Source of the DNA: an uncultured Ruminococcus sp. | GTDB lineage: Bacteria; Bacillota; Clostridia; Monoglobales; Monoglobaceae | DNA: 58,201 bases | Reading direction: 5' to 3' | Assembly (NCBI GenBank): GCA_902791425.1 | Contig: CADAVS010000001.1 | Coordinates: 1 to 58,201 of the forward strand | Shown: piece by piece, positions 573 to 13,384 of the stretch | Position numbering within the stretch: the first letter of the stretch is position 1 | How the letters are laid out: every line of letters starts with the position of its first letter | The notes under the pieces: generated by a model | What the model was told of the DNA's origin: nothing | Database searches by the model: none | Seen by the model: the letters and a program-made list of their open reading frames with translations, nothing else | Translations under genes and position numbers: made by a program

Positions 573-2240
573 ATGATTTTATCCGGGGCGGACATAATTG
601 TAAAAACATTAATAGAACAAGGGTGTGACGTTGTTTTCGGATATCCGGGCGGACAGATAATTAATGTATATGACTCTTTGTATAAATATCAGGATGAGAT
701 TACTCATATCTTGACAGCACACGAGCAGGGAGCAACCCACGCTGCTGACGGATATGCAAGAACAACAGGAAAGCCGGGGGTTGTTATTTCGACTTCAGGA
801 CCGGGTGCGACCAACTTAGTCACAGGTATTGCCACAGCGTATCTCGATTCTGTTCCGCTTGTTGCCATATGCGGAAACGTGCCTACCACTCAGATAGGCA
901 CAGACAGCTTTCAGGAAATTGATATTACGGGTATAACCTTGCCTATTACCAAGCATAATTATTTTGTCGGAAATGTGGAATCCCTTGCGGATACTATAAG
1001 AGAGGCATTCAAGCTTGCGGTATCAGGCAGACCGGGACCTGTGTTGGTTGATATTCCCAAGGATGTTCAGATGGCAATGTGTGAGTATACTCAGCATAAT
1101 GTGGCAGAGCCTGAAGAAAAGAAGGCGGCAAAGGATATCAGAATTCAAGAAGCGGCAGAATGTATTAATGCCTCCAAAAGACCTTATATCTACTTTGGCG
1201 GCGGTCTTATTACTGCAGAGGCACAGGAAGAAATGTTGGCACTTGCAGATAAGATAGACGCACCTATAGGCTGTTCATTGATGGGACTTTCGGGCATACC
1301 GACAGATACAGAGAGATTTTTGGGAATGCAGGGTATGCACGGACACTATGCTTCGTCAATGGCTATGCATCACGCGGATTGTATCATATCCTTGGGTGTA
1401 AGATTTAATGACAGAGTAACGGGAAACAGAGAAAAGTTTGCCACAACAGCAAAGATTGTTCATATTGATGTTGACGGCTCTGAGCTTTCAAAGACTGTAA
1501 ATTCTGCACACGGACTTCGAGGCGATGTAAAGCTGACACTTCAAAAGCTGTTGCCCTTGATTAAAGAGGATGCAAAGCCTATGTGGCAGAACGAAATCAA
1601 AGAGTTCAAGACAGAAGAAGTTAAAAATTCAGATACTCGTGACAGCCTGACGCCTAAAAATACTATTCAGACATTGAACAAGTTCTTGGGCGAGAATACC
1701 GCCGTTGCAACGGATGTAGGTCAGCATCAGATGTGGGCGGCTCAAAATCTTTCGTTTAAGAAGTCAAGACGCTTTGCGTCAAGCGGCGGCTTGGGAACAA
1801 TGGGCTTTGGTATGGGTGCCGCAATCGGTGCGGCGTTCGGCACAGGTGAGAGAACAGTTCTTGTCACAGGTGACGGCAGCTTTGGTATGTGCTTAAATGA
1901 GCTTGCAACTGCTGTTACATACAATATTCCGATTGTTATTCTGTTGATGAACAACGGAGTTTTGGGAATGGTAAGACAATGGCAGACCTTGTTCTTTGAC
2001 AAGCATTATTCAAATACGGTGCTTGACAGAAAAACCGACTTTATTAAGTTGGCAAAGGCTTTCGGTGCAGATGGCGAGAGGGCAGATTCTGTTGCCGAGC
2101 TTGAAAAAGCGTTGGAAAATGCCTTTAACTGTTCGGGTCCATATGTGATAGATTGTGCTGTCGACAAAGACGAGTTTGTTCTTCCTATGCTTCCTCCCGG
2201 CGGCTCAATGGATGATATTATTGTAAAGGTGGGTGATTGA
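573..2240 (+). CDS. ilvB: acetolactate synthase large (catalytic) subunit, ThDP-dependent
   Basis: 555 aa. It has the GYPGG start region, the ThDP-binding GDGSF...NNG motif and full-length AHAS architecture. The ilvN gene overlaps its stop. Confidence 0.93.
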   Translation: MILSGADIIVKTLIEQGCDVVFGYPGGQIINVYDSLYKYQDEITHILTAHEQGATHAADGYARTTGKPGVVISTSGPGATNLVTGIATAYLDSVPLVAICGNVPTTQIGTDSFQEIDITGITLPITKHNYFVGNVESLADTIREAFKLAVSGRPGPVLVDIPKDVQMAMCEYTQHNVAEPEEKKAAKDIRIQEAAECINASKRPYIYFGGGLITAEAQEEMLALADKIDAPIGCSLMGLSGIPTDTERFLGMQGMHGHYASSMAMHHADCIISLGVRFNDRVTGNREKFATTAKIVHIDVDGSELSKTVNSAHGLRGDVKLTLQKLLPLIKEDAKPMWQNEIKEFKTEEVKNSDTRDSLTPKNTIQTLNKFLGENTAVATDVGQHQMWAAQNLSFKKSRRFASSGGLGTMGFGMGAAIGAAFGTGERTVLVTGDGSFGMCLNELATAVTYNIPIVILLMNNGVLGMVRQWQTLFFDKHYSNTVLDRKTDFIKLAKAFGADGERADSVAELEKALENAFNCSGPYVIDCAVDKDEFVLPMLPPGGSMDDIIVKVGD

Positions 2241-2748
2241 TGTGGCAAGATTTACTGTGGCTGTCCTTGTAAACAACCATTTTGGCGTATTGAACCGCGT
2301 AACAAGTATGTTCAGACGCCGTCAGTTCAACATCAGTGCATTGACGGTAAGTGAGACGGAGTCAAATGAGTATTCACGTATCACAGTTGTATTCGATGGT
2401 GATGAACAAAATAAACAACAGCTTGTAAATCAGCTGTATAAGTTGCCTGATGTATGCTCCGTAAGCGAGTTAAAGGACGACGATTCAATTAACTGCGAAT
2501 TGTTGTTGATTAAGCTTGCAAACAACGCAGAAACAAGAGATGAAATTATGGCTGCGACAACTGCCTTTGAAGCCAAGATAATGGATTATTCAAAGGACTC
2601 ACTTATTTTACAGCTTACGGGTACAAGCAGACGTATTGATGATTTTATAAATTTAATGCGCGACTTTGAAATTCTGGAAATATGCAGAACGGGTAGCGTA
2701 TCCCTTGAAAAGGGAAGTTCAACTATAAGAAAAGTAACAAATTTTTAA
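2233..2748 (+). CDS. ilvN: acetolactate synthase small (regulatory) subunit, ACT domain
   Basis: 171 aa with a GTG start overlapping the ilvB stop. VLVNNHFGVLNRVTSMFRRRQFNI is the ACT-domain signature of IlvN/IlvH. Confidence 0.9.
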   Translation: MIDVARFTVAVLVNNHFGVLNRVTSMFRRRQFNISALTVSETESNEYSRITVVFDGDEQNKQQLVNQLYKLPDVCSVSELKDDDSINCELLLIKLANNAETRDEIMAATTAFEAKIMDYSKDSLILQLTGTSRRIDDFINLMRDFEILEICRTGSVSLEKGSSTIRKVTNF

Positions 2749-2756
2749 TATATTAA

Positions 2757-3791
<1,035 letters not shown>

Positions 3792-3837
3792 TCGTCAATT
3801 ACTTGCAACAATTGTATTTAAGAGAGGAGAAACATCA

Positions 3838-5493
3838 ATGAAAAGCGATTCATTAAAGGCAGGGGCACAAAATGCCCCACACAGAGCTTTATATCACGCT
3901 CTCGGAATGACAGAAGAAGAAATAAACAGACCGCTTGTGGGCATTGTAAGCTCATATAACGAGATTGTTCCCGGACATATGAATATCGACAAAATAGTTG
4001 ACGCTGTTAGAATGGGCGTTGCTATGGCAGGCGGAACACCTATTGTCTTTCCCGCAATTGCTGTATGTGACGGAATTGCTATGGGACATACAGGTATGAA
4101 GTATTCTCTTGTCACACGTGACCTGATTGCCGACTCTACCGAGGCAATGGCTATGGCTCACGGCTTTGACGCACTTGTTATGGTTCCCAACTGTGACAAG
4201 AACGTGCCCGGACTTTTGATGGCGGCGGCAAGGCTTAATGTTCCAACTGTATTTGTAAGCGGCGGACCAATGCTTGCCGGCAGAATTGACGGCAAAAAGA
4301 CAAGCTTTTCGTCTATTTCAGAGGCTGTCGGCGAATTTAACGCCGGTAAAATAACCGAGGAAAAGCTCCGTGAATATGAGTGCAAAACCTGTCCCACTTG
4401 CGGTTCCTGTTCGGGAATGTATACTGCCAACTCAATGAACTGTTTGACAGAGGCTCTCGGTATGGGACTTAAGGGCAACGGAACTATTCCTGCAGTATAT
4501 TCTGCACGTATCGAGCTTGCAAAGCACGCAGGAATGAAGGTTATGGAGCTTTTGGAAAAGAATATCCGTCCTCGCGATATTATGACAGAGGAGGCATTGA
4601 TGAATGCTTTGACAGTTGATATGGCACTTGGCTGCTCTACCAACAGTATGCTTCACCTCCCTGCAATCGCTCACGAATGCGGTGTTGAAATAAACCTTGA
4701 TATTGCAAATAAAATTAGCGAAAAGACACCTAACCTTTGTCATTTGGCACCTGCAGGCAGAACATATATCGAAGAACTTGACGAGGCGGGCGGTGTTTAC
4801 GCTGTTATGAACGAGCTTGACAAAAAAGGCTTGCTGAATACGGATTGCATAACCGTAACAGGAAAAACTGTGGGTGAAAATATTAAGAATTGCATCAATC
4901 TCAATCACGAGGTAATCAGACCCATCGAAAATCCGTACAGCGAAACAGGCGGTATCGCTGTATTGAGAGGTAACCTTGCCCCCGAGGGCAGCGTTGTTAA
5001 GCGTTCGGCAGTATTGCCCGCGATGCTTGTTCACGAAGGTCCGGCAAGAGTTTTCGAGTGCGAGGAAGATGCTCAAGCCGCAATAAATGCAGGCAAGATA
5101 AACCCCGGTGATGTAGTCGTTATCAGATACGAAGGTCCTAAGGGTGGACCGGGTATGCGTGAAATGCTCAATCCTACATCTGCCATAATGGGTATGGGCT
5201 TGGGCAACAGCGTTGCACTTATTACTGACGGACGTTTCAGCGGTGCAACAAGAGGTGCTTGTGTAGGTCATATCACACCTGAGGCGGCAAGCGGCGGTTT
5301 AATCGGTGTTGTAAACGAAGGCGATATTATTAGCATAAATATTCCGGAAAACAAGATCGAACTTAAAGTTCCGCAAGATGAGCTTGACGAGCGTATGAAG
5401 AACTTTACACCTAAAAAGAAGGAGCTGACAGGCTATCTTAAGCGTTATGCCGAGATGGTGTCAGGCGGTGCTTCGGGGGCGATTTTAAACTAA
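3838..5493 (+). CDS. ilvD: dihydroxy-acid dehydratase
   Basis: 551 aa. Fe-S ligand region [11 protein letters not shown] and ITDGRFSG motifs are present. RBS GAGAGGAG lies upstream. Confidence 0.95.
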
Positions 5494-6796: not shown

Positions 6797-7063
6797 CTAT
6801 CCTGCGTTTTTTTGTCGGCGGTATTTTTCGCGTGTGGCATAGCCGCCTCTGATGTGTCGCTCCTGCTTGTTTTCGGTGAGAATTTTACGCACGTCTGCTG
6901 CAAGTCTGCCGTTTATATCAAGCAGACGTTCTGTCACGTCTTTATGTACGGTTGATTTTGAAATTCCAAACTTACGTGCGGCTTCTCTGACTGTGCATTT
7001 GTTCTGAATGATATATTCTGCAAGCTCAACAGTTCTTTCTTCTATAATGTGACTTTGACGCAT
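6797..7063 (-). CDS. spoIIID: stage III sporulation protein D (mother-cell transcription regulator)
   Basis: 88 aa from the ATG at 7063, with a GGGAGTG RBS 6 nt upstream. The HTH FGISKSTVHKDVTERL and the C-terminal HIRGGYATREKY closely resemble B. subtilis SpoIIID. Confidence 0.9.
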   Translation of the reverse strand: MRQSHIIEERTVELAEYIIQNKCTVREAARKFGISKSTVHKDVTERLLDINGRLAADVRKILTENKQERHIRGGYATREKYRRQKNAG

Positions 7064-7178
7064 ATAAATCACTCCCATATATTATGCTATTTCAAATATA
7101 TGACCAATATATGGGTTTTAGAATTTATATTATTGCAATACAATTAACTTATATCATTTATGATTATATTAAATGGCA

Positions 7179-7548
7179 TTATTTCATCTTTTTCAGTACT
7201 TCCTCAAATACTGTACCGATGCTGTCCCTGAATACCAAATCAGAATTATTGTCAAAAGCCGTGCAATTCAATTACTTTGCAACTGCCTGCCCTTTGATGA
7301 AGTCAGTCTATATTTTGGGAAATAACCGCTTTTAATTTGCCCATTTCTTCAAGCACGGCAAGTGATTTATGTGTCTTATTCGGCTCTGCCTCTGATGTGA
7401 AATATTTTCTGTAAAAATCATAGAAAACATCAGGATAATCTTTGAAAAGGTCTATGCTGAGTATCGTTTCGGGCGATATTCCCGCACCGCCAAAGAACAC
7501 AATATTGTTACATTCATTTATCATATTTGCAAATTTTTCTATATTCAT
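7179..7548 (-). pseudogene. decayed NAD-dependent deacylase (Sir2/CobB family) remnant
   Basis: The N-terminal part has FFGGAGIS and VISQNID, followed by an in-frame TGA where the Gly of QNIDGLH is expected. It continues LHQRAGSCKVIELHGF and stops. A C-terminal-like tail (SDLVFRDSIGTVFEEVL) sits in another frame. The Zn-ribbon and catalytic core are missing. Confidence 0.75.
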
Positions 7549-7556
7549 AGTTAACC

Positions 7557-7871
7557 TCAATCTGCATCCTCATTAAGTGCCTCAATCAAGAAACTGACAG
7601 GGCGGAAACCATCGTTACAGGAAATCATTGCAGATTTCTTGTTTTTCATCCATCCGTCATAAAAGTCCTCTGCCCCGTGAGAAAGTGCCATAACAAAGGC
7701 GGACATACTATCCCAAGCACTGTCGCACATACCGTCAGGCTTTTGCCAGCCGTTTGCAACAAAGGTTTGACCTACTTTCATATCACAGGCGTGCTCAATA
7801 GGATTTTCGTATTTTTCAATCAAATCCTCATAGCGAGCCATTTTCATTACTGTAATTTTACATTTTTTCAA
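7557..7871 (-). CDS. TIGR04076-like small Cys-containing protein (function unknown)
   Basis: 104 aa. A TTG start lies 9 nt after GGAG. The length and pattern (KITV..., VGQTF, PDGMCDSAW, ISCNDGFRPVSF) match my recollection of the TIGR04076 family. Confidence 0.6.
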   Translation of the reverse strand: MKKCKITVMKMARYEDLIEKYENPIEHACDMKVGQTFVANGWQKPDGMCDSAWDSMSAFVMALSHGAEDFYDGWMKNKKSAMISCNDGFRPVSFLIEALNEDAD

Positions 7872-7941: not shown

Positions 7942-8379
7942 TCATCTTTTCTTAAATATAACAAGTTCGGGGTCTGCACCATTTTCTTTATATGTGCAAA
8001 CGAGCAAAAAGTCCATTCCTGCAGCCATACCGAAGCATTTGTTATCGGTATCAAACTCACATTCAGCCTGTGCACCAAGATAAATCTCGTTATCATCGAG
8101 AAATTTTTGCTTTGTTCCATTTGGCAGGGAATATTCCAAATTAACATATGCACCATTCAAGGCATAAAGTTCAGTAATTTTGGACATTCCCTCTATGTTT
8201 AATGCATTAAACTCCGCAATTAATTTCTTTTTAAATGCATTATATGCATCTATGCCTCCAATTTTTATGTAATTTGCAATGAAACATTTCTTTCCGAAAG
8301 GTGAATCACAGCCTTTGCAGCCGCAGTTATTGCCGTATTCACAATTTGAGCAATCTGCCCCACATAGTCCTTTCATCAT
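7942..8379 (-). CDS. DUF3795-like cysteine-rich protein (function unknown)
   Basis: 145 aa. The N-terminus CGADCSNCEYGNNCGCKGC is typical of DUF3795 in anaerobes. Its start lies 2 nt after the upstream DUF5131 gene. Confidence 0.65.
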   Translation of the reverse strand: MMKGLCGADCSNCEYGNNCGCKGCDSPFGKKCFIANYIKIGGIDAYNAFKKKLIAEFNALNIEGMSKITELYALNGAYVNLEYSLPNGTKQKFLDDNEIYLGAQAECEFDTDNKCFGMAAGMDFLLVCTYKENGADPELVIFKKR

Positions 8380-8380
8380 C

Positions 8381-9097
8381 CTACTTCCTTTCGTAATCTA
8401 TTCCTGCAAGTCTGGCTTGTTTCATCAAATCTTTTGTTTGCAGCTTGTACTTCTTTCCGTCTTTAATAAAATGCGTACCGCATTGACGGAACTCAAAGCT
8501 GACATTTTTATTTATACATTGTTCTCTGATGTGCAGCACCCAAGCATAGTTTAGAGGTCTTGCATACATATCCGACTCGCCGCCTACAATTACACTTTCA
8601 ATACCATCTAAATATTTTTCTATGTAAAGGTCGGAAATCAGCGGTTGTGCTGTGATTTGCTTATGCTTTATGGGCAGGTCCTTGAAGATGGAAAGCTTGT
8701 AATCGGCATTTTTCTGATTTTCTATAGTGCAGCAAACTACAACATTATCGTATCCGTCACCCCAATCGTCAGGAATACAATCCATAAACCTGTCAATCCG
8801 CTTGGTCAGAAACAAAAATATACAGTCCTTACGCTCTTTTATCATCTGCCAACATTCGTATCTCCAACCGTCTGCCTCTTCAATGAGAAAATCGGTAGAA
8901 AAGCATAGATAAACAAGCCCCGATTTCATTTTATATTCGCCGTTTTTCTTTTTATCTATGGGTTTTGAAAAATCCTTTGTTTTTACAATTTCATCTGTGT
9001 TGACCTTGCGTTTTGCGTCGCCTTTATGTATATAGCAGTGCAAACATCCGTCACTGCATTTGTGGCAACCTCGCCACGGACTCCACATTGATGCCAT
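8381..9097 (-). CDS. DUF5131 (phage Gp37/Gp68-like) protein with an N-terminal Cx3Cx2C motif
   Basis: 238 aa. The N-terminus WSPWRGCHKCSDGCLHCY has the family hallmark and contains CSDGCLHC (Cx3Cx2C). Confidence 0.7.
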   Translation of the reverse strand: MASMWSPWRGCHKCSDGCLHCYIHKGDAKRKVNTDEIVKTKDFSKPIDKKKNGEYKMKSGLVYLCFSTDFLIEEADGWRYECWQMIKERKDCIFLFLTKRIDRFMDCIPDDWGDGYDNVVVCCTIENQKNADYKLSIFKDLPIKHKQITAQPLISDLYIEKYLDGIESVIVGGESDMYARPLNYAWVLHIREQCINKNVSFEFRQCGTHFIKDGKKYKLQTKDLMKQARLAGIDYERK

Positions 9098-9117: not shown

Positions 9118-9699
9118 TTAAATTGTTAATTTAAACATTCCGTGCTTGTTGCAATAGGCATATAACATCCCGTGTCCTTTTCTCTTGAACCTGACGCATA
9201 CATCTTGCTCGGGATACAGCTTTTTTATCTCAAGAGTATCGCTTGAAATATATACTATAAAAGAAATATAGTGATTTTTGCTCATAGAATGTGCCATTGT
9301 AATCAGGAGCTCGTTTTCTGCTTGCTCCACGCACATTTGGTGTTCGCTGTCAGGTGCTTCAGCTTCAAGCTTGGGCAGATTTATGCCACAGCAAGTAAAA
9401 CAGCCATCACCCATAGAATTGATAACATTACCGCAAATTGGGCAGACATAAAACTGCATTTTCTTCATATTGGCTGATATATTTTCGTTAATTCTTAAAT
9501 CCCCTGTCAACAGCTCCGAAAGTGAAACTCCCAACGCTTTTGCCAAATCCTCAATAACGCATAAATCGGGCAGACCTCTGTTGGTTTCCCATTTTGATAC
9601 CGCTTTGTCGCTCACCATTAGTTTGTCCGCAAGCTCTTTTTGAGTGAGATTTTGTTTCTCGCGAAGTTTTTTTATTGTTGTTCCGGTTACATATTCCAT
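9118..9699 (-). CDS. XRE-family HTH domain fused to a complete desulfoferrodoxin (desulforedoxin plus superoxide-reductase-like domains)
   Basis: 193 aa. The HTH is LTQKELADKLMVSDKAVSKWE. The Dx-like motif is CPICGN...CFTCCG. SOR centre-II-like ligand positions are SEHQM, AHSMSKNHYISF and YCNKHG. RBS AGGAGGG is present. Confidence 0.8.
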   Translation of the reverse strand: MEYVTGTTIKKLREKQNLTQKELADKLMVSDKAVSKWETNRGLPDLCVIEDLAKALGVSLSELLTGDLRINENISANMKKMQFYVCPICGNVINSMGDGCFTCCGINLPKLEAEAPDSEHQMCVEQAENELLITMAHSMSKNHYISFIVYISSDTLEIKKLYPEQDVCVRFKRKGHGMLYAYCNKHGMFKLTI

Positions 9700-9727
9700 T
9701 TTTTTGCCCTCCTTATTTGATGAACAA

Positions 9728-9756
9728 AGTATATCTCAAAAATGCTTGTTCTGCAA
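9728..9756 (-). promoter_or_regulatory. sigmaA-type promoter for the HTH-Dfx operon
   Basis: On the minus strand: TTGCAG, 17 nt, TATACT. The -35 overlaps one arm of the inverted repeat CTGCAAC(9751-9757)/GTTGCAG(9781-9787). Confidence 0.45.
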
Positions 9757-9809
9757 CCTACTTAAAGTAGAGGAGGGAGTGTTGCAGATTATATATTTAT
9801 GATACAAAA

Positions 9810-10163
9810 TTATTTGAGTTTTTCGCTCCATTCACTTTCTTTAAATCCAATCAAAACAAAGTCTGTGCCTATCACGAGAGGACGTTTTACAAGCATTCCG
9901 TCTGATGCAAGAAGCTTTAACTGTTCCTCATCAGACATAGCGGGAAGCTTTGTTTTAAGCTCCATTGACTTATACAATAGACCTGATGTGTTAAAAAACT
10001 TCTTTAGAGGCAGTCCGCTCATTTTGTACCAGGCAGACAGCTCCTCAAAATTCGGATTATTTTCTTTTATATCACGAAGTTCATATTCAATTTTGTTGTC
10101 ATCAAGCCATTTTTTCGCTTTTTGGCAGGTTGTGCATTTGGGGTAACAAATAAATTTTATCAT
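9810..10163 (-). CDS. ArsC/Spx-family thiol oxidoreductase-like protein
   Basis: 117 aa. It has an N-terminal CPKCTTCQKAKKWL and the GMLVKRPL motif of the ArsC/Spx/YffB fold. Confidence 0.8.
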   Translation of the reverse strand: MIKFICYPKCTTCQKAKKWLDDNKIEYELRDIKENNPNFEELSAWYKMSGLPLKKFFNTSGLLYKSMELKTKLPAMSDEEQLKLLASDGMLVKRPLVIGTDFVLIGFKESEWSEKLK

Positions 10164-10178
10164 AGTAATTCTCCATTC

Positions 10179-10625
10179 TTATTTTTCTGTTTCATAGGGC
10201 CAGTCGATAATACCGCCAAATTCTTTTACATTTGTATAACTAAGTTTGGAAAGAGCCTCGGCGGCAATTTTACTTCGTCTGCCTGACCTGCAATATACAA
10301 GAATTTGCTTATCCTTATCAGTTATTATTTCTTCTGCTTTATTCTCGATTTCGGTATATGGAATTAAGATTGCACCGGGAATGTGTCCCTCATCATATTC
10401 GTATTGCTCTCTGACATCAAGGATAATAACCTCCTCATCGCTATCCATTATCTTTTTGGCAGCTTCTGCCGTAATTGTTTCATACATTGCTTTTTCTCCT
10501 TTATCAGTTACAATTATTGATGTCGGTTCATCGGCTCCGCCAATAATACCGATACTGCTATCATTTCCGCAAGCAGTAAGCATAATGCAAATTAAGATTG
10601 ATATAAAACAAAATATTTTCTTCAT
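10179..10625 (-). CDS. rhodanese-domain lipoprotein
   Basis: 148 aa. The lipobox is LTAC-G. The rhodanese active-site loop is CRSGRRS. Confidence 0.85.
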   Translation of the reverse strand: MKKIFCFISILICIMLTACGNDSSIGIIGGADEPTSIIVTDKGEKAMYETITAEAAKKIMDSDEEVIILDVREQYEYDEGHIPGAILIPYTEIENKAEEIITDKDKQILVYCRSGRRSKIAAEALSKLSYTNVKEFGGIIDWPYETEK

Positions 10626-10661: not shown

Positions 10662-11030
10662 TCATATCAAAGATTTTGAAAAGTCATAGGCTACTGCTGT
10701 TTCGGGATTTCTGTATTCGTGCTTTTCGTAATAGCCAATCAAACTTCCCTCGTCATCACGCAGTGCAACCATATACACATCTTTGTTTTCTTTTTCGCTG
10801 TGGAATGTGTAAATCATATTATTATCACGGCTTTCTTTAAACCAATCCACAACTTTTATAATAATCTCGTTTGACTTTGCATTGTGACAATCAAGCAGAG
10901 AAGAACCTGTTAAGTCCTTGTGATACCTCTCTACAGCAACCTTATTCATATAGACTATTGTGTGATTAACATTGCAAATCACCACCGCAGACCTGTCAGT
11001 TTCAATTACACTTTTAAATAAATTATACAT
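10662..11030 (-). CDS. stand-alone PAS-domain protein
   Basis: 122 aa with a PAS-like fold pattern (VVICNVNHTIVYMNKVAVERY ... DDEGSLIGY). It is the first gene of a tightly spaced minus-strand trio. Confidence 0.6.
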   Translation of the reverse strand: MYNLFKSVIETDRSAVVICNVNHTIVYMNKVAVERYHKDLTGSSLLDCHNAKSNEIIIKVVDWFKESRDNNMIYTFHSEKENKDVYMVALRDDEGSLIGYYEKHEYRNPETAVAYDFSKSLI

Positions 11031-11227: not shown

Positions 11228-11310
11228 AAATCCGAAGTAATTTTAATGAACAATTGCCAAAAGCCCATACAGTTGCCAAGCCCAACTGCAATGAAAAGTT
11301 ATTTCAGACT
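11228..11310 (-). repeat. copy C of a roughly 85-nt hairpin element (sense strand is minus)
   Basis: The reverse complement of 11263-11290 is identical to the 28-nt core TGCAGTTGGGCTTGGCAACTGTATGGGC at 21779-21806 and 41626-41653. Flanking AU-rich arms are at 11231-11244 and 11294-11308. Confidence 0.85.
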
Positions 11311-11353
11311 TTTGCAAACGGTTAAAATAATATATAAAAACGGAGGAGATGAA

Positions 11354-12649
11354 ATGGATTCAGTATGGGAGCAGACTTATTCCAAAGATAACTTTGGAAG
11401 GCTTAATAAAGATATAAAAACAGATGTGTTGATTATCGGCGGCGGAATGACGGGGATATTATGTGCATACTATCTCAATCAGGCAGGTGTTAGCTCTGTA
11501 CTTGCGGAGGCAAAAACGATAGGTGGCGGAATCACCAAAAATACAACAGCCAAAATCACATCGCAGCACGGACTGATTTATGATAAAATAATAAAAAAAT
11601 ATGGAATAGAAAAGGCAAAACAGTATCTTGAAATAAACCAATCAGCACTAAAAACATATCGTGATTTATGCAAAAACATTGATTGTGATTTTGAAGAGAA
11701 GAACTCTTATGTTTACAGCATAGATAACAGACAGAAAATTGAAGACGAGATAACAGCACTTAGTAAATTGGGTTTTAATGCAGAATTTACAAAGGATTTG
11801 CCTCTGCCCTTTGAGGTGGCAGGTGCGGTGCGTTATCCCAATCAGGCACAATTTAATCCGCTTAAATTTTTATATGCAATATCAAAAGGCTTAAATATAT
11901 ACGAGCACACCAAAGTACGTGAGCTTATGGGCACGACAGCAATCACCGATGGTGGCAAAATTTATGCCAAAAAGATTATTGTGGCGACACATTTTCCGTT
12001 TATCAATAAACACGGCGGTTATTTTATTAAAATGTATCAGCATCGCTCCTATGTGATTGCACTTAAAAATGCACCTGATGTAAATGGCATTTATGTAGAT
12101 GAATCGCAAACGGGAATGTCATTTAGAAATTACGAAAATTTATTGTTTGTGGGTGGCGGTGCTCACAGAACGGGAAAGAAGGGCGGAAATTGGGAGGAAT
12201 TACGAGCATTTGCAAAAAAACATTACCCTAATGCTATAGAAAAATACCATTGGGCAACCCAGGATTGTATGACACTTGATGGTATGGCGTATATAGGTTC
12301 GTATAGTAAAAGCACAAAGGGACTATATGTTGCAACCGGATTTAATAAATGGGGAATGACCTCAGCGATGGTATCAGCAATGATTTTATGTGATATGGTG
12401 CAAGGAAGAAAAAATGAATATCAAGATTTATTTTCACCATCAAGAAGAATACTGCATCCTCAACTTGCGGTAAATATATTTGAATCAACTAAAGGCTTGC
12501 TTACACCAAAGCCCAAAAGATGTCCGCACTTAGGTTGTGCACTCAAATGGAATCCCTATGAGCATACATGGGATTGCTCGTGCCACGGCTCCCGTTTTAC
12601 GGAAAACGGAGAAGTTATTGACAATCCCGCAACGGGAGATTTAAAATAA
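11354..12649 (+). CDS. FAD-dependent oxidoreductase fused to a C-terminal Rieske [2Fe-2S] domain (YhfW-like)
   Basis: The start is set at ATG 11354, 5 nt after GGAGGAG. The FAD motif is VLIIGGGMTG. The Rieske motifs are CPHLGC ... CSCHGS. Confidence 0.85.
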   Translation: MDSVWEQTYSKDNFGRLNKDIKTDVLIIGGGMTGILCAYYLNQAGVSSVLAEAKTIGGGITKNTTAKITSQHGLIYDKIIKKYGIEKAKQYLEINQSALKTYRDLCKNIDCDFEEKNSYVYSIDNRQKIEDEITALSKLGFNAEFTKDLPLPFEVAGAVRYPNQAQFNPLKFLYAISKGLNIYEHTKVRELMGTTAITDGGKIYAKKIIVATHFPFINKHGGYFIKMYQHRSYVIALKNAPDVNGIYVDESQTGMSFRNYENLLFVGGGAHRTGKKGGNWEELRAFAKKHYPNAIEKYHWATQDCMTLDGMAYIGSYSKSTKGLYVATGFNKWGMTSAMVSAMILCDMVQGRKNEYQDLFSPSRRILHPQLAVNIFESTKGLLTPKPKRCPHLGCALKWNPYEHTWDCSCHGSRFTENGEVIDNPATGDLK

Positions 12650-12724: not shown

Positions 12725-13384
12725 TTACAACAGCTTAAAATAATTCCTTTTACATTCCAAAATGTTTTCTTTTCTGAGTTTGCTGATTTCAGCGGACAAT
12801 CCACTGCGGTCTACCTCGAGATAGTCTGCAAGTTCTTGTCTGTTAAACGGAATTTTAAAGCTGTTTTTATTATTCTTTTTAGCACAAATTGTAAGATATG
12901 TGAGTAGCTTTTCCCGCGTTGTTCTCTTTGATATAATCTCGATTTTTTGTTGGAACATAACGGTCTTTAAAGCTAAAACCTTCATCAGATTATAAACTAA
13001 TTGCTGATGATGCGGGCAGTCCTTTTGGCAGGTGTGCAAAATATGGCTACAATCAATAAACATAATTTTACTTCTCTCATTGGCAATAGCCGATACGGGC
13101 ATAGAGGTCATTTGCACACAGGCAAATGCCTCTGAGAAGAGTTCTCCTTCACAAAGATTGCCTAAAATACTTCTGTTGCCATAGTAATCCGTTCGGGTTA
13201 TCTGTACCGAACCTGAAAGCACTATGCCAATATATTTTGCAGGCGTACCCTCCGATAAAATAGTATAATTCTTATCAAATATATCCGTTTTTGCCTCAAG
13301 GCATTCAAGCATTGTAATAATATTATTATCGGATAAATCAAAGAATAAAGGACATTTTTTTAATACATTTAAAAATTTTCTCAT
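12725..13384 (-). CDS. Crp/Fnr-family transcription regulator
   Basis: 219 aa. It has an N-terminal cNMP-binding-like barrel and a C-terminal HTH (RQELADYLEVDRSGLSAEISKL). Confidence 0.85.
   Translation of the reverse strand: MRKFLNVLKKCPLFFDLSDNNIITMLECLEAKTDIFDKNYTILSEGTPAKYIGIVLSGSVQITRTDYYGNRSILGNLCEGELFSEAFACVQMTSMPVSAIANERSKIMFIDCSHILHTCQKDCPHHQQLVYNLMKVLALKTVMFQQKIEIISKRTTREKLLTYLTICAKKNNKNSFKIPFNRQELADYLEVDRSGLSAEISKLRKENILECKRNYFKLL

Follow-up and report, generated by a model that had tools for sequence, protein, structure and literature searches.

We report here on a 193-residue fusion protein encoded in a 58,201-nucleotide stretch of DNA from an uncultured Ruminococcus sp. (contig CADAVS010000001.1 of assembly GCA_902791425.1, positions 1 to 58,201; hereafter the window), in which a helix-turn-helix (HTH) domain of the XRE/cI type precedes a desulforedoxin-like (Dx) and a superoxide reductase-like (SOR) domain. 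With moderate confidence, we read this protein as a self-contained, autoregulated iron-site transcription factor that is possibly still an enzyme. The components of this reading differ in firmness: regulation of the gene by its own product through a promoter palindrome is very likely on the sequence evidence, control of DNA binding by the metal sites is an evenly balanced proposition, and superoxide as the specific signal is a tentative suggestion. The gene, of the HTH-Dx-SOR class, occupies positions 9118-9699 of the minus strand (193 amino acids plus stop, ATG start), as established from the list of open reading frames (ORFs), the sequence itself and matches in Pfam, NCBIfam and PDB; a ribosome-binding site, GGAGG, was read from the sequence 8 nt before the ATG (9708-9712, minus strand).

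The evidence that carries autoregulation lies upstream of the gene. An alignment of 69 homologue upstream regions yields an element with the consensus nnTCTACGnAnCGTAGGTTG, followed after 3+17 nt by TAtAAT, and a family consensus for the palindrome of TCTACGnnnCGTAGG. In the window, the operator-like palindrome TCTAC-TTTAA-GTAGG (15 bp, 9757-9771), located by alignment, position weight matrix (PWM) and pattern count, is made up of the left half-site CTCTAC (9772-9767), the spacer TTTAA (9766-9762) and the right half-site GTAGG (9761-9757). It directly abuts the -35 hexamer TTGCAG (9751-9756), placed by the same alignment and by register statistics, which is followed by a spacer of 17 nt (9750-9734) and by the -10 hexamer TATACT (9728-9733), placed by family promoter statistics; all of these elements are on the minus strand. 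Transcription would start near 9721, which puts the centre of the palindrome at about -43. Across the family, the YCTAC and GTAGR half-sites stand 10 bp apart, centre to centre, and the TTG of the -35 hexamer is nearly invariant. The distance to the best -10 hexamer is 17 nt in 72 of 74 unique family promoters, and this hexamer matches TATAAT at four or more of its six positions in 69 of the 74, with an extended TG in 24. The -10 hexamer of the window was not listed by a generic promoter scan because its -35 hexamer matches only three of six positions.

The palindrome is as specific as it is regular. With a PWM built from 58 unique sites, the palindrome of the window scores 23.8 and the next best site in the 58 kb scores 9.6; the pattern YCTAC-N5-GTAGR occurs once in the window, against 0.05 occurrences expected. 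A site scoring at least 14 lies within 300 nt upstream of the gene in all 81 loci, drawn from three phyla, the distance from the G of the TTG to the start codon being 46-112 nt (median 58), and 838 kb of flanking DNA holds a single weak non-self site, in locus L022. When metagenome contigs were scanned blindly for exact matches to CTACGNNNCGTAGGTTG, at least 123 matches in at least 120 stretches were returned; among the matches listed, 60 of 123 are correctly oriented and precede a homologue by 66-220 nt, and most of the others have neither the TCT prefix nor a -10 box, as expected of chance matches in so large a collection. Conversely, the homologues P0171 and P0282, which have no HTH (two independent proteins, five loci), have no palindrome in their loci, where the best PWM score is 0.7, and their genes are real stand-alone genes with ordinary promoters. 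In a distant HTH-fused Terrisporobacter clade that lay outside the training set, ACTCTACGAAGAGTAGATTG is found at the same position with a score of 23.7. Finally, a clade in which the recognition helix starts VPKTVSKWE rather than SDKxVSKWE (loci L208-L211, proteins P0340 and P0354) carries TGTACGGATAGTGGATTG instead of TCTACGnnnCGTAGGTTG in the same promoter register, which hints at co-variation of protein and DNA. A palindrome in promoter register at 81/81 loci and upstream of a homologue at 60/123 of the listed metagenome matches, with none at the HTH-less homologues, strengthens the case for the autoregulation that a first-pass annotation of this DNA had proposed, and points to a cognate palindromic operator at a regulated promoter.

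The neighbourhood of the gene, in turn, argues for a unit that stands alone. All-against-all clustering of ORFs from 80 loci disclosed no common neighbour, and 130 Pfam families are represented among the 141 nearest neighbours, the largest with seven members, all from near-identical Collinsella loci. A conserved operon partner was rejected on this double ground, and the gene appears to be a self-contained unit because its neighbours are unconserved. A search for a regulon across the window, the 838 kb of flanks and the 63 listed non-self metagenome matches gave only anecdotal candidates (L111, L143 and L022). The proposal that the gene is the first of an operon is not supported: a same-strand gene of the Spx type ends 110 nt upstream and no terminator-like site was found between the two, so that the first position is not secure, nor is it a feature of the family, whose neighbours are unconserved.

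The architecture of the protein is clear from several sources. Residues 6-65 (9505-9684, minus strand) form an XRE/cI-type HTH domain of five helices, as delimited by HTH_3, the helices of an AlphaFold2 model, Foldseek and invariant columns. The Pfam HTH_3 match spans residues 9-63 (E 7.4e-17, 61.6 bits against a cut-off of 23), the predicted helices cover residues 6-15, 20-27, 31-38, 46-56 and 60-65, and the domain matches the P22 c2 repressor (3jxb) with a template modelling (TM) score, normalized to the target, of 0.86. In its recognition helix, S35-K36-W37-E38-T39 is invariant among relatives. These features identify a five-helix HTH_3 domain with a conserved recognition helix, of XRE/cI type, and agree with the earlier assignment of residues 1-68 to an XRE HTH.

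A conserved linker (residues 66-79; 9463-9504, minus strand), delimited by column conservation and predicted local distance difference test (pLDDT) values, leads to a desulforedoxin-like centre I knuckle (residues 80-110; 9370-9462, minus strand) with the motif C86-x2-C89-x13-C103-C104, aligned to the cysteines of desulfoferrodoxin (Dfx), and then to a neelaredoxin-like beta-sandwich, the SOR centre II domain (residues 111-193; 9121-9369, minus strand), defined by PF01880, HMMER alignments and Foldseek. The Pfam Desulfoferrodoxin profile PF01880 is passed (26.3 bits, gathering score 22.2), whereas that of the Desulfoferrodoxin N-terminal domain, PF06397, is failed (17.3 bits against 23) despite the CxxC...CC motif of the protein. 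The best PDB matches by phmmer are the 2Fe-SOR of Desulfoarculus baarsii (2ji2/2ji1, E 4e-9 to 2e-8) and, at E 3e-5, the Dfx of Desulfovibrio desulfuricans (1dfx); a profile of 38 family members improves them to 1.4e-15 and 5.7e-10, respectively. The AlphaFold2 monomer model (mean pLDDT 80.4) shows five helices, a low-confidence linker and a beta-rich C-terminal part, with pLDDT of about 77-92 in the Dx-SOR part, and Foldseek ranks 2ji2, 2ji1, 1dfx, 1vzg and the Treponema pallidum SOR 1y07 highest in PDB, the SOR matches having TM(target) 0.74-0.81 and E down to 2e-10. The model thus predicts a Dx knuckle followed by the seven-stranded SOR beta-sandwich, and the combination of an HTH with a desulfoferrodoxin-like module, as annotated in the first pass, is upheld by the Pfam, NCBIfam, PDB and Foldseek matches alike. 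Within the linker, N71, N73 and N77 are invariant in the family alignment and E72, M78, K79 and K80 are kept at 92-96%. It is conserved to the same degree as the domains, yet predicted to be disordered in the monomer (residues 68-79, pLDDT below 50), and is a candidate signal-transmitting hinge.

Both metal sites are retained. In an alignment of the query with 120 relatives (62-98% identity) and the D. baarsii enzyme, C86, C89, C103, C104, H120, H137, C183 and H186 are invariant in 121 of 121 sequences and H143 is present in 120. The centre II ligands H120, H137, H143, C183 and H186 align with those of D. baarsii and D. desulfuricans, and C86, C89, C103 and C104 with the centre I cysteines of the same two proteins. 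HMMER pairs SEHQM with EKHVP, AHSMSKNHY with AHPMEEKHY, YCNKHG with YCNIHG or YCNLHG, and CxxC...CC with the centre I cysteines, which reproduces the motif pairings made earlier by eye (SEHQM/EKHVP, AHSMSKNHYISF/AHPMEEKHYIQW, YCNKHG/YCNIHG). Alignment to characterised Dfx/SOR sequences therefore confirms that the His and Cys residues do align with centre II and that all of its ligand positions are kept, as the first-pass annotation had supposed, together with those of centre I. The spacings in the protein are C-x2-C-x13-CC and H-x16-H-x5-H-x39-C-x2-H; compared with the published ranges for 2Fe-SORs (x15, x19-27 and x40-63; PMC11980386), they are compressed. At position 118, the Glu of the SOR loop is kept in 72% of the family; the window protein has Ser there, followed by Glu. 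In SORs, the Glu two residues before the first His is the sixth ligand of the ferric site, and the Lys of EKHxP serves in substrate steering and protonation. Taken together, the alignments show strong constraint on the metal sites in the clade of the protein, and none comparable on the signature of efficient SOR catalysis.

The fusion architecture itself is not new, and the protein is a member of a catalogued class. SORGOdb lists 19 proteins as 'HTH-Dx-SOR', a class defined by architecture only, with function, operator and regulation not described (Lucchetti-Miganeh et al., 2011, BMC Microbiol; PMC3116461). The protein shares the domain order of that class (N-terminal HTH, desulforedoxin-like Cys4, centre II domain) and shows its three defining features, namely the N-terminal HTH, the Cys4 motif and a centre II of four His and one Cys; the Cys4 spacer is 13 residues long, against the x15 quoted for the parent motif of the class. 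This placement follows the described architecture of the class and not a comparison with its 19 sequences. Relatives are named 'DNA-binding XRE family transcriptional regulator/desulfoferrodoxin (superoxide reductase-like protein)' by JGI. What is new is the operator with its promoter, the self-contained unit, and the pattern of constraint, with ligands kept and catalytic Lys lost.

The family is large, with 2762 clusters at 90% identity and relatives in at least 588 species genomes. These cover Bacillota, Actinomycetota (Collinsella, Adlercreutzia) and Spirochaetota (Treponema), and include Lachnospiraceae, Oscillospiraceae, Acutalibacteraceae, Christensenella and Peptostreptococcus; the nearest named relatives of the window protein come from metagenome-assembled genomes (MAGs) of a Monoglobaceae member (98%) and a rumen 'Ruminococcus' (92%). 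Two recently described oxygen-stress regulators were considered as possible identities and set aside: OseR of C. difficile is of the Spx/YusI type and unrelated, and TrtA of T. denticola is an unrelated XRE protein of 104 amino acids.

These findings allow us to propose a model for how the protein might work. The cI/XRE HTH is tethered by the conserved 14-residue linker to a compact desulfoferrodoxin-like module that would keep both iron sites, a Cys4 site and a His4Cys site with an open coordination position. The protein would dimerise through its beta-sandwich, as 2Fe-SORs do, and the dimer would place two HTH domains on the palindrome near -43 and, once bound, set the transcription of its own gene. 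At OR2, centred at -42 on PRM, lambda cI contacts region 4 of sigma. The promoter-locked register across three phyla suggests a comparable contact with RNA polymerase, and hence activation; repression by occlusion of the -35 hexamer is equally possible. One step further, the state of an iron site might alter linker or dimer geometry and, with it, affinity for DNA, the candidate states being centre II Fe(II)/Fe(III) with a Glu on/off switch, the redox state of centre I, and metal occupancy. SORs already possess a conformational switch: once their centre II is oxidised, the loop Glu moves onto the iron.

Given that only its own promoter has a site and that no partner is conserved, the main output would be the level of the protein itself. 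The absence of a conserved partner gene or second operator suggests that the protein is probably both sensor and effector, that is, a self-regulating SOR-like protein. Superoxide or an O2-derived oxidation is the most plausible signal, with iron availability as second choice. The boldest form of the model is speculative and we hold it to be rather doubtful: the His4Cys centre would be a direct receptor of superoxide (or O2/NO) that switches the HTH on the -43 operator, promoter, operator and gene would form a self-amplifying sensor-plus-effector cassette spread horizontally through Bacillota, Coriobacteriia and Treponema of gut and rumen communities, and the protein would rank as the first one-component sensor in strict anaerobes that is dedicated to superoxide.

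Several points weigh against the reading of the protein as an autoregulated iron-site factor. The PWM was first scored on the loci from which it was built, independent checks being the metagenome scan, the Terrisporobacter locus L206 and the HTH-less loci. It is also conceivable that the palindrome is bound by a different dedicated factor, and there may be a small distal regulon with degenerate sites, the scan having covered window, flanks and metagenome contigs. The EKHxP loop reads S118-E119-H120-Q-M in the protein, so that the catalytic Lys (K48 of D. baarsii) is replaced, and across the family residue 119 at this position is E, D or N, variable and rarely K. The NCBIfam equivalog TIGR00320 (dfx_rbo) matches residues 79-190 at E 7e-13 and reaches only 48.9 bits of a cut-off of 146.9; together with the missing Lys, this weakens the suggestion that the protein is still an enzyme. 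Moreover, a minority of lineages keep the HTH and have lost centre II ligands (patterns such as HKDSE and SKDDN), which means that metal sensing at centre II is not universal. Lastly, our literature search found no paper testing DNA binding, metal content or activity in the HTH-Dx-SOR class.

The ligand-deficient lineages came to light when the Dx-SOR part alone was used as query in an exhaustive search of 50%-identity cluster representatives, which gave 1090 clusters at E <= 1e-3 and 405 at E <= 1e-10. The best matches are mostly about 193-200 amino acids long, with the match beginning near residue 74, and some have no HTH and about 116 amino acids. Further HTH-fused variants have the last His changed to Asp (CxxD) or the fourth Cys to His (CCCH). 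Such lineages, for example P0237, P0259, P0180, P0233, P0243, P0244 and P0206, are natural 'mutants' that could reveal which metal site matters for regulation.

The loss of the catalytic Lys and the lineages with a degenerate centre II would fit a non-catalytic role, and they lead to the alternative that survives best, which is nevertheless unlikely: the Dx-SOR-like module might be a metal-stabilised dimerisation scaffold, comparable to the Zn-ribbon of MqsA, in a constitutive autoregulator that senses nothing. In its favour, the catalytic Lys is not conserved, the TIGR00320 score is far under the cut-off, and the HTH is kept in lineages with HKDSE or SKDDN patterns and with CCCH or CxxD variants. 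This alternative is harder to reconcile with the retention, across 62-98% identity in the clade, of all four Cys and the five centre II ligands (H143 in 120/121), or with a ferric-ligand Glu, two residues before the first His, kept in 72%; folding needs alone would hardly account for such conservation of a His4Cys centre with an open site.

An iron-availability sensor with Fur-like logic, in which occupancy of centre II by Fe(II) rather than its oxidation would set DNA binding, is improbable. In its favour, centre II is a solvent-exposed mononuclear Fe(II) site, and 2 of the 141 nearest-neighbour genes belong to the FUR family. Against this, the same census shows that genes for iron uptake or storage are not conserved in the vicinity, a search of the window, the flanks and the listed metagenome matches gave no additional operator in front of another gene, and a sensor of iron that controls only itself has no obvious use.

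It is more improbable still that the protein is an enzyme only, with an HTH-like domain of structural value and a palindrome bound by some other regulator. The idea draws on the whole-chain analogues returned by Foldseek, HppE, HEPD and MPnS, which join an HTH_3-like domain to an Fe(II) enzyme and thereby also count against the regulatory reading, and on the retention of all metal ligands. However, the palindrome tracks the presence of the HTH and not of the Dx-SOR module, stands at the HTH-Dx-SOR gene across three phyla and nearly nowhere else, and changes in the clade whose recognition helix has changed; in addition, the SKWET recognition helix is invariant, and the Lys important for SOR catalysis is missing.

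A role for the outer inverted repeat CTGCAAC-N23-GTTGCAG (7-N23-7, exact match, 9751-9787), either as operator for widely spaced HTH domains or as terminator of the upstream Spx-like gene, can be dismissed as scarcely credible: the repeat is an exact one that is not expected by chance (0 in shuffles) and lies just past the stop codon of the upstream gene, yet its left arm (9781-9787) is common only to the closest relative L001, there as ATGCAAC with one mismatch, its right arm amounts to the -35 hexamer preceded by a G, and the region shows neither a following T-tract nor a called terminator-like site. The unconserved left arm and the lack of a terminator signature were our grounds for rejecting both functions. 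In this regard, the earlier claim of an inverted repeat at the promoter stands in part: the repeat is exact and its right arm does contain the -35 hexamer, but only the inner 15-bp palindrome is conserved.

The favoured reading, an autoregulated factor with an iron-site module, can be set beside several known systems. With the 2Fe-SORs of D. baarsii (2ji1) and D. desulfuricans (1dfx) the protein shares the two-domain fold (predicted TM 0.74), and its complete sets of centre I Cys (four) and centre II ligands (five) align with theirs. These enzymes are dimers, and a dimer would suit a palindromic operator. It differs from them in being about 25% identical, in four short deletions, in the SEHQM loop, in the HTH fusion and in an NCBIfam equivalog score of one third of the cut-off. 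Although homologous to 2Fe-SORs, it should thus not be filed as a desulfoferrodoxin equivalog, because the curated score is unreached, the catalytic Lys is missing and it is a fusion protein.

The phage repressors lambda cI, 434 and P22 c2 have an HTH fold like that of the protein (TM 0.86 for P22 c2) and palindromic operators with half-sites one helical turn apart, as proposed here, and OR2 at PRM provides a site near -42/-43 that abuts the -35 of the regulator's own promoter, as in our case. Unlike these, the protein has a single operator rather than a tripartite one, and an iron protein takes the place of the peptidase-like dimerisation domain; nothing here points to a phage context.

With PerR/Fur the protein would share the logic of a regulatory, His-bound mononuclear Fe(II) whose oxidation or occupancy controls DNA binding, as found in anaerobes and Firmicutes. 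Fold and DNA-binding domain are unrelated, and no match to the FUR family was found for the protein in Pfam, NCBIfam or PDB, so that PerR/Fur serves as a working analogy of mechanism and not as a family to which the protein belongs. PerR, moreover, has a regulon of detoxification genes, whereas only self-regulation is detectable here. The trigger enzymes PutA, BirA and NadR likewise join, in one polypeptide, a redox or catalytic module to a DNA-binding domain that controls its own gene; they have no sequence relationship to the protein, the likeness is one of proposed logic, and enzymatic activity is putative in our case. HppE, HEPD and MPnS, in turn, have the same succession of an XRE-like helical domain and a beta-domain with mononuclear non-haem iron. 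Their iron domain is a cupin and that of the protein an SOR sandwich, and their HTH-like domain plays a structural part and is not known to have an operator; in the family studied here, by contrast, the HTH goes together with a dedicated operator.

To our knowledge, strict gut anaerobes have no SoxR, and by what means they perceive superoxide, rather than peroxide (PerR) or thiol stress (Spx/OseR), is unexplained. Specialists will not find it surprising that such a fusion exists; the family is, however, widespread in gut anaerobes, including the dominant groups Lachnospiraceae, Oscillospiraceae, Collinsella and ASF356, and bears on this question. Should the iron site gate DNA binding, the active site of an enzyme would have been reused as a sensor, and the unit would be small enough for a portable oxidative-stress reporter in anaerobes. 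With a defined 15-bp operator and its promoter, a class that entered a database 15 years ago can now be put directly to the test. Should the protein turn out to be no more than a constitutive autoregulator, or an unusual enzyme, the finding will interest specialists alone.

Some loci deserve mention for the fate of their operator or gene. In three metagenome samples (L120, L130 and L172), operator and promoter are followed by an ORF of 59 amino acids that comprises only the last third of the SOR domain and looks like a deletion derivative; L139 holds a frameshifted copy of the gene with Cys residues lost. In L208-L211, the gene adjoins another HTH_3+Zn_ribbon_2 gene and mobile-element genes (DnaB-like, NikA-like and a DNA methylase). 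At L111 (9321-9337, minus strand), a non-self exact operator match precedes a gene for an isochorismatase/nicotinamidase-like protein of 168 amino acids; among the non-self exact matches listed, it alone has a consensus promoter (TTGATT-17-TATAAT) together with a ribosome-binding site, and it could represent an uncommon target in trans or have arisen by chance. In the Terrisporobacter MAG locus L206 (1106-2298, minus strand; 2433-2452), the HTH-Dx-SOR gene is divergent from a DUF2238-rubrerythrin operon, with the operator inside the common intergenic region of 202 nt, a single, anecdotal connection with defence against peroxide and oxygen.

A stand-alone 'mini-Dfx' subfamily of 114-120 amino acids (L201-L205: P0171 and P0282; others of about 116), with no Pfam match on record, shares the signature of the fused module (KFYVCPxCGN, CCG, HxMxKxHY, LYPEQ and YCNxHGLF). 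By similarity, its members are interspersed among the HTH-fused proteins, a pattern suggesting that the HTH was gained or lost more than once. A gene for an FAD-dependent oxidoreductase with a C-terminal Rieske domain (DAO+Rieske) is found at 11246-12649 (plus strand) in the window, at 2751-4046 in L001, at 8038-9381 in L058 and at 1578-2876 in L203; it lies 1.5 kb from the HTH-Dx-SOR gene in the lineage of the window and in L058, and directly upstream of an HTH-less mini-Dfx homologue in L203. We considered it as a recurrent, possibly electron-transfer partner and dropped the idea, the cases being too few for such a claim.

In the window, the order of genes on the same strand is PAS-like, rhodanese, Spx/MgsR-family, HTH-Dx-SOR, DUF5131, Cys-rich, TIGR04076 and Sir2 fragment. 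The PAS-like gene (10662-11030), the rhodanese gene, whose product has a lipoprotein-like N-terminus (10179-10625), and the Spx/MgsR-family gene, with a CxxC motif (9810-10163; TIGR01617, 98.8 bits against a cut-off of 75), all on the minus strand, make up a small thiol/redox cluster, which is preceded by a strong promoter-like site (11096-11068). The Spx-like gene also adjoins the HTH-Dx-SOR gene in L001, an arrangement that is not general in the family. Downstream follow a DUF5131 gene (8381-9097, minus strand), weakly similar to 'radical SAM mobile pair protein A', and a Cys-rich ORF of 145 amino acids with no family match (7942-8379, minus strand). In L001, whose protein is 92% identical, synteny ends exactly at the stop codon, these two genes (7942-9097) are absent, and the TIGR04076 gene directly follows the HTH-Dx-SOR gene; judged by this comparison, the two genes are an indel of about 1.2 kb that sits exactly behind the stop codon. 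An ORF of 85 amino acids (7303-7560, minus strand) matches only positions 31-87 of the 180-position Sir2 profile and ends immediately behind the QNID motif; it probably represents the remnant of a truncated Sir2. The wider context includes ilvB-, ilvC- and ilvD-like genes (573-5493, plus strand), a gene for a Crp/Fnr-type regulator (12725-13384, minus strand) and one for SpoIIID (6797-7078, minus strand), the last of which indicates a spore-forming member of the Clostridia.

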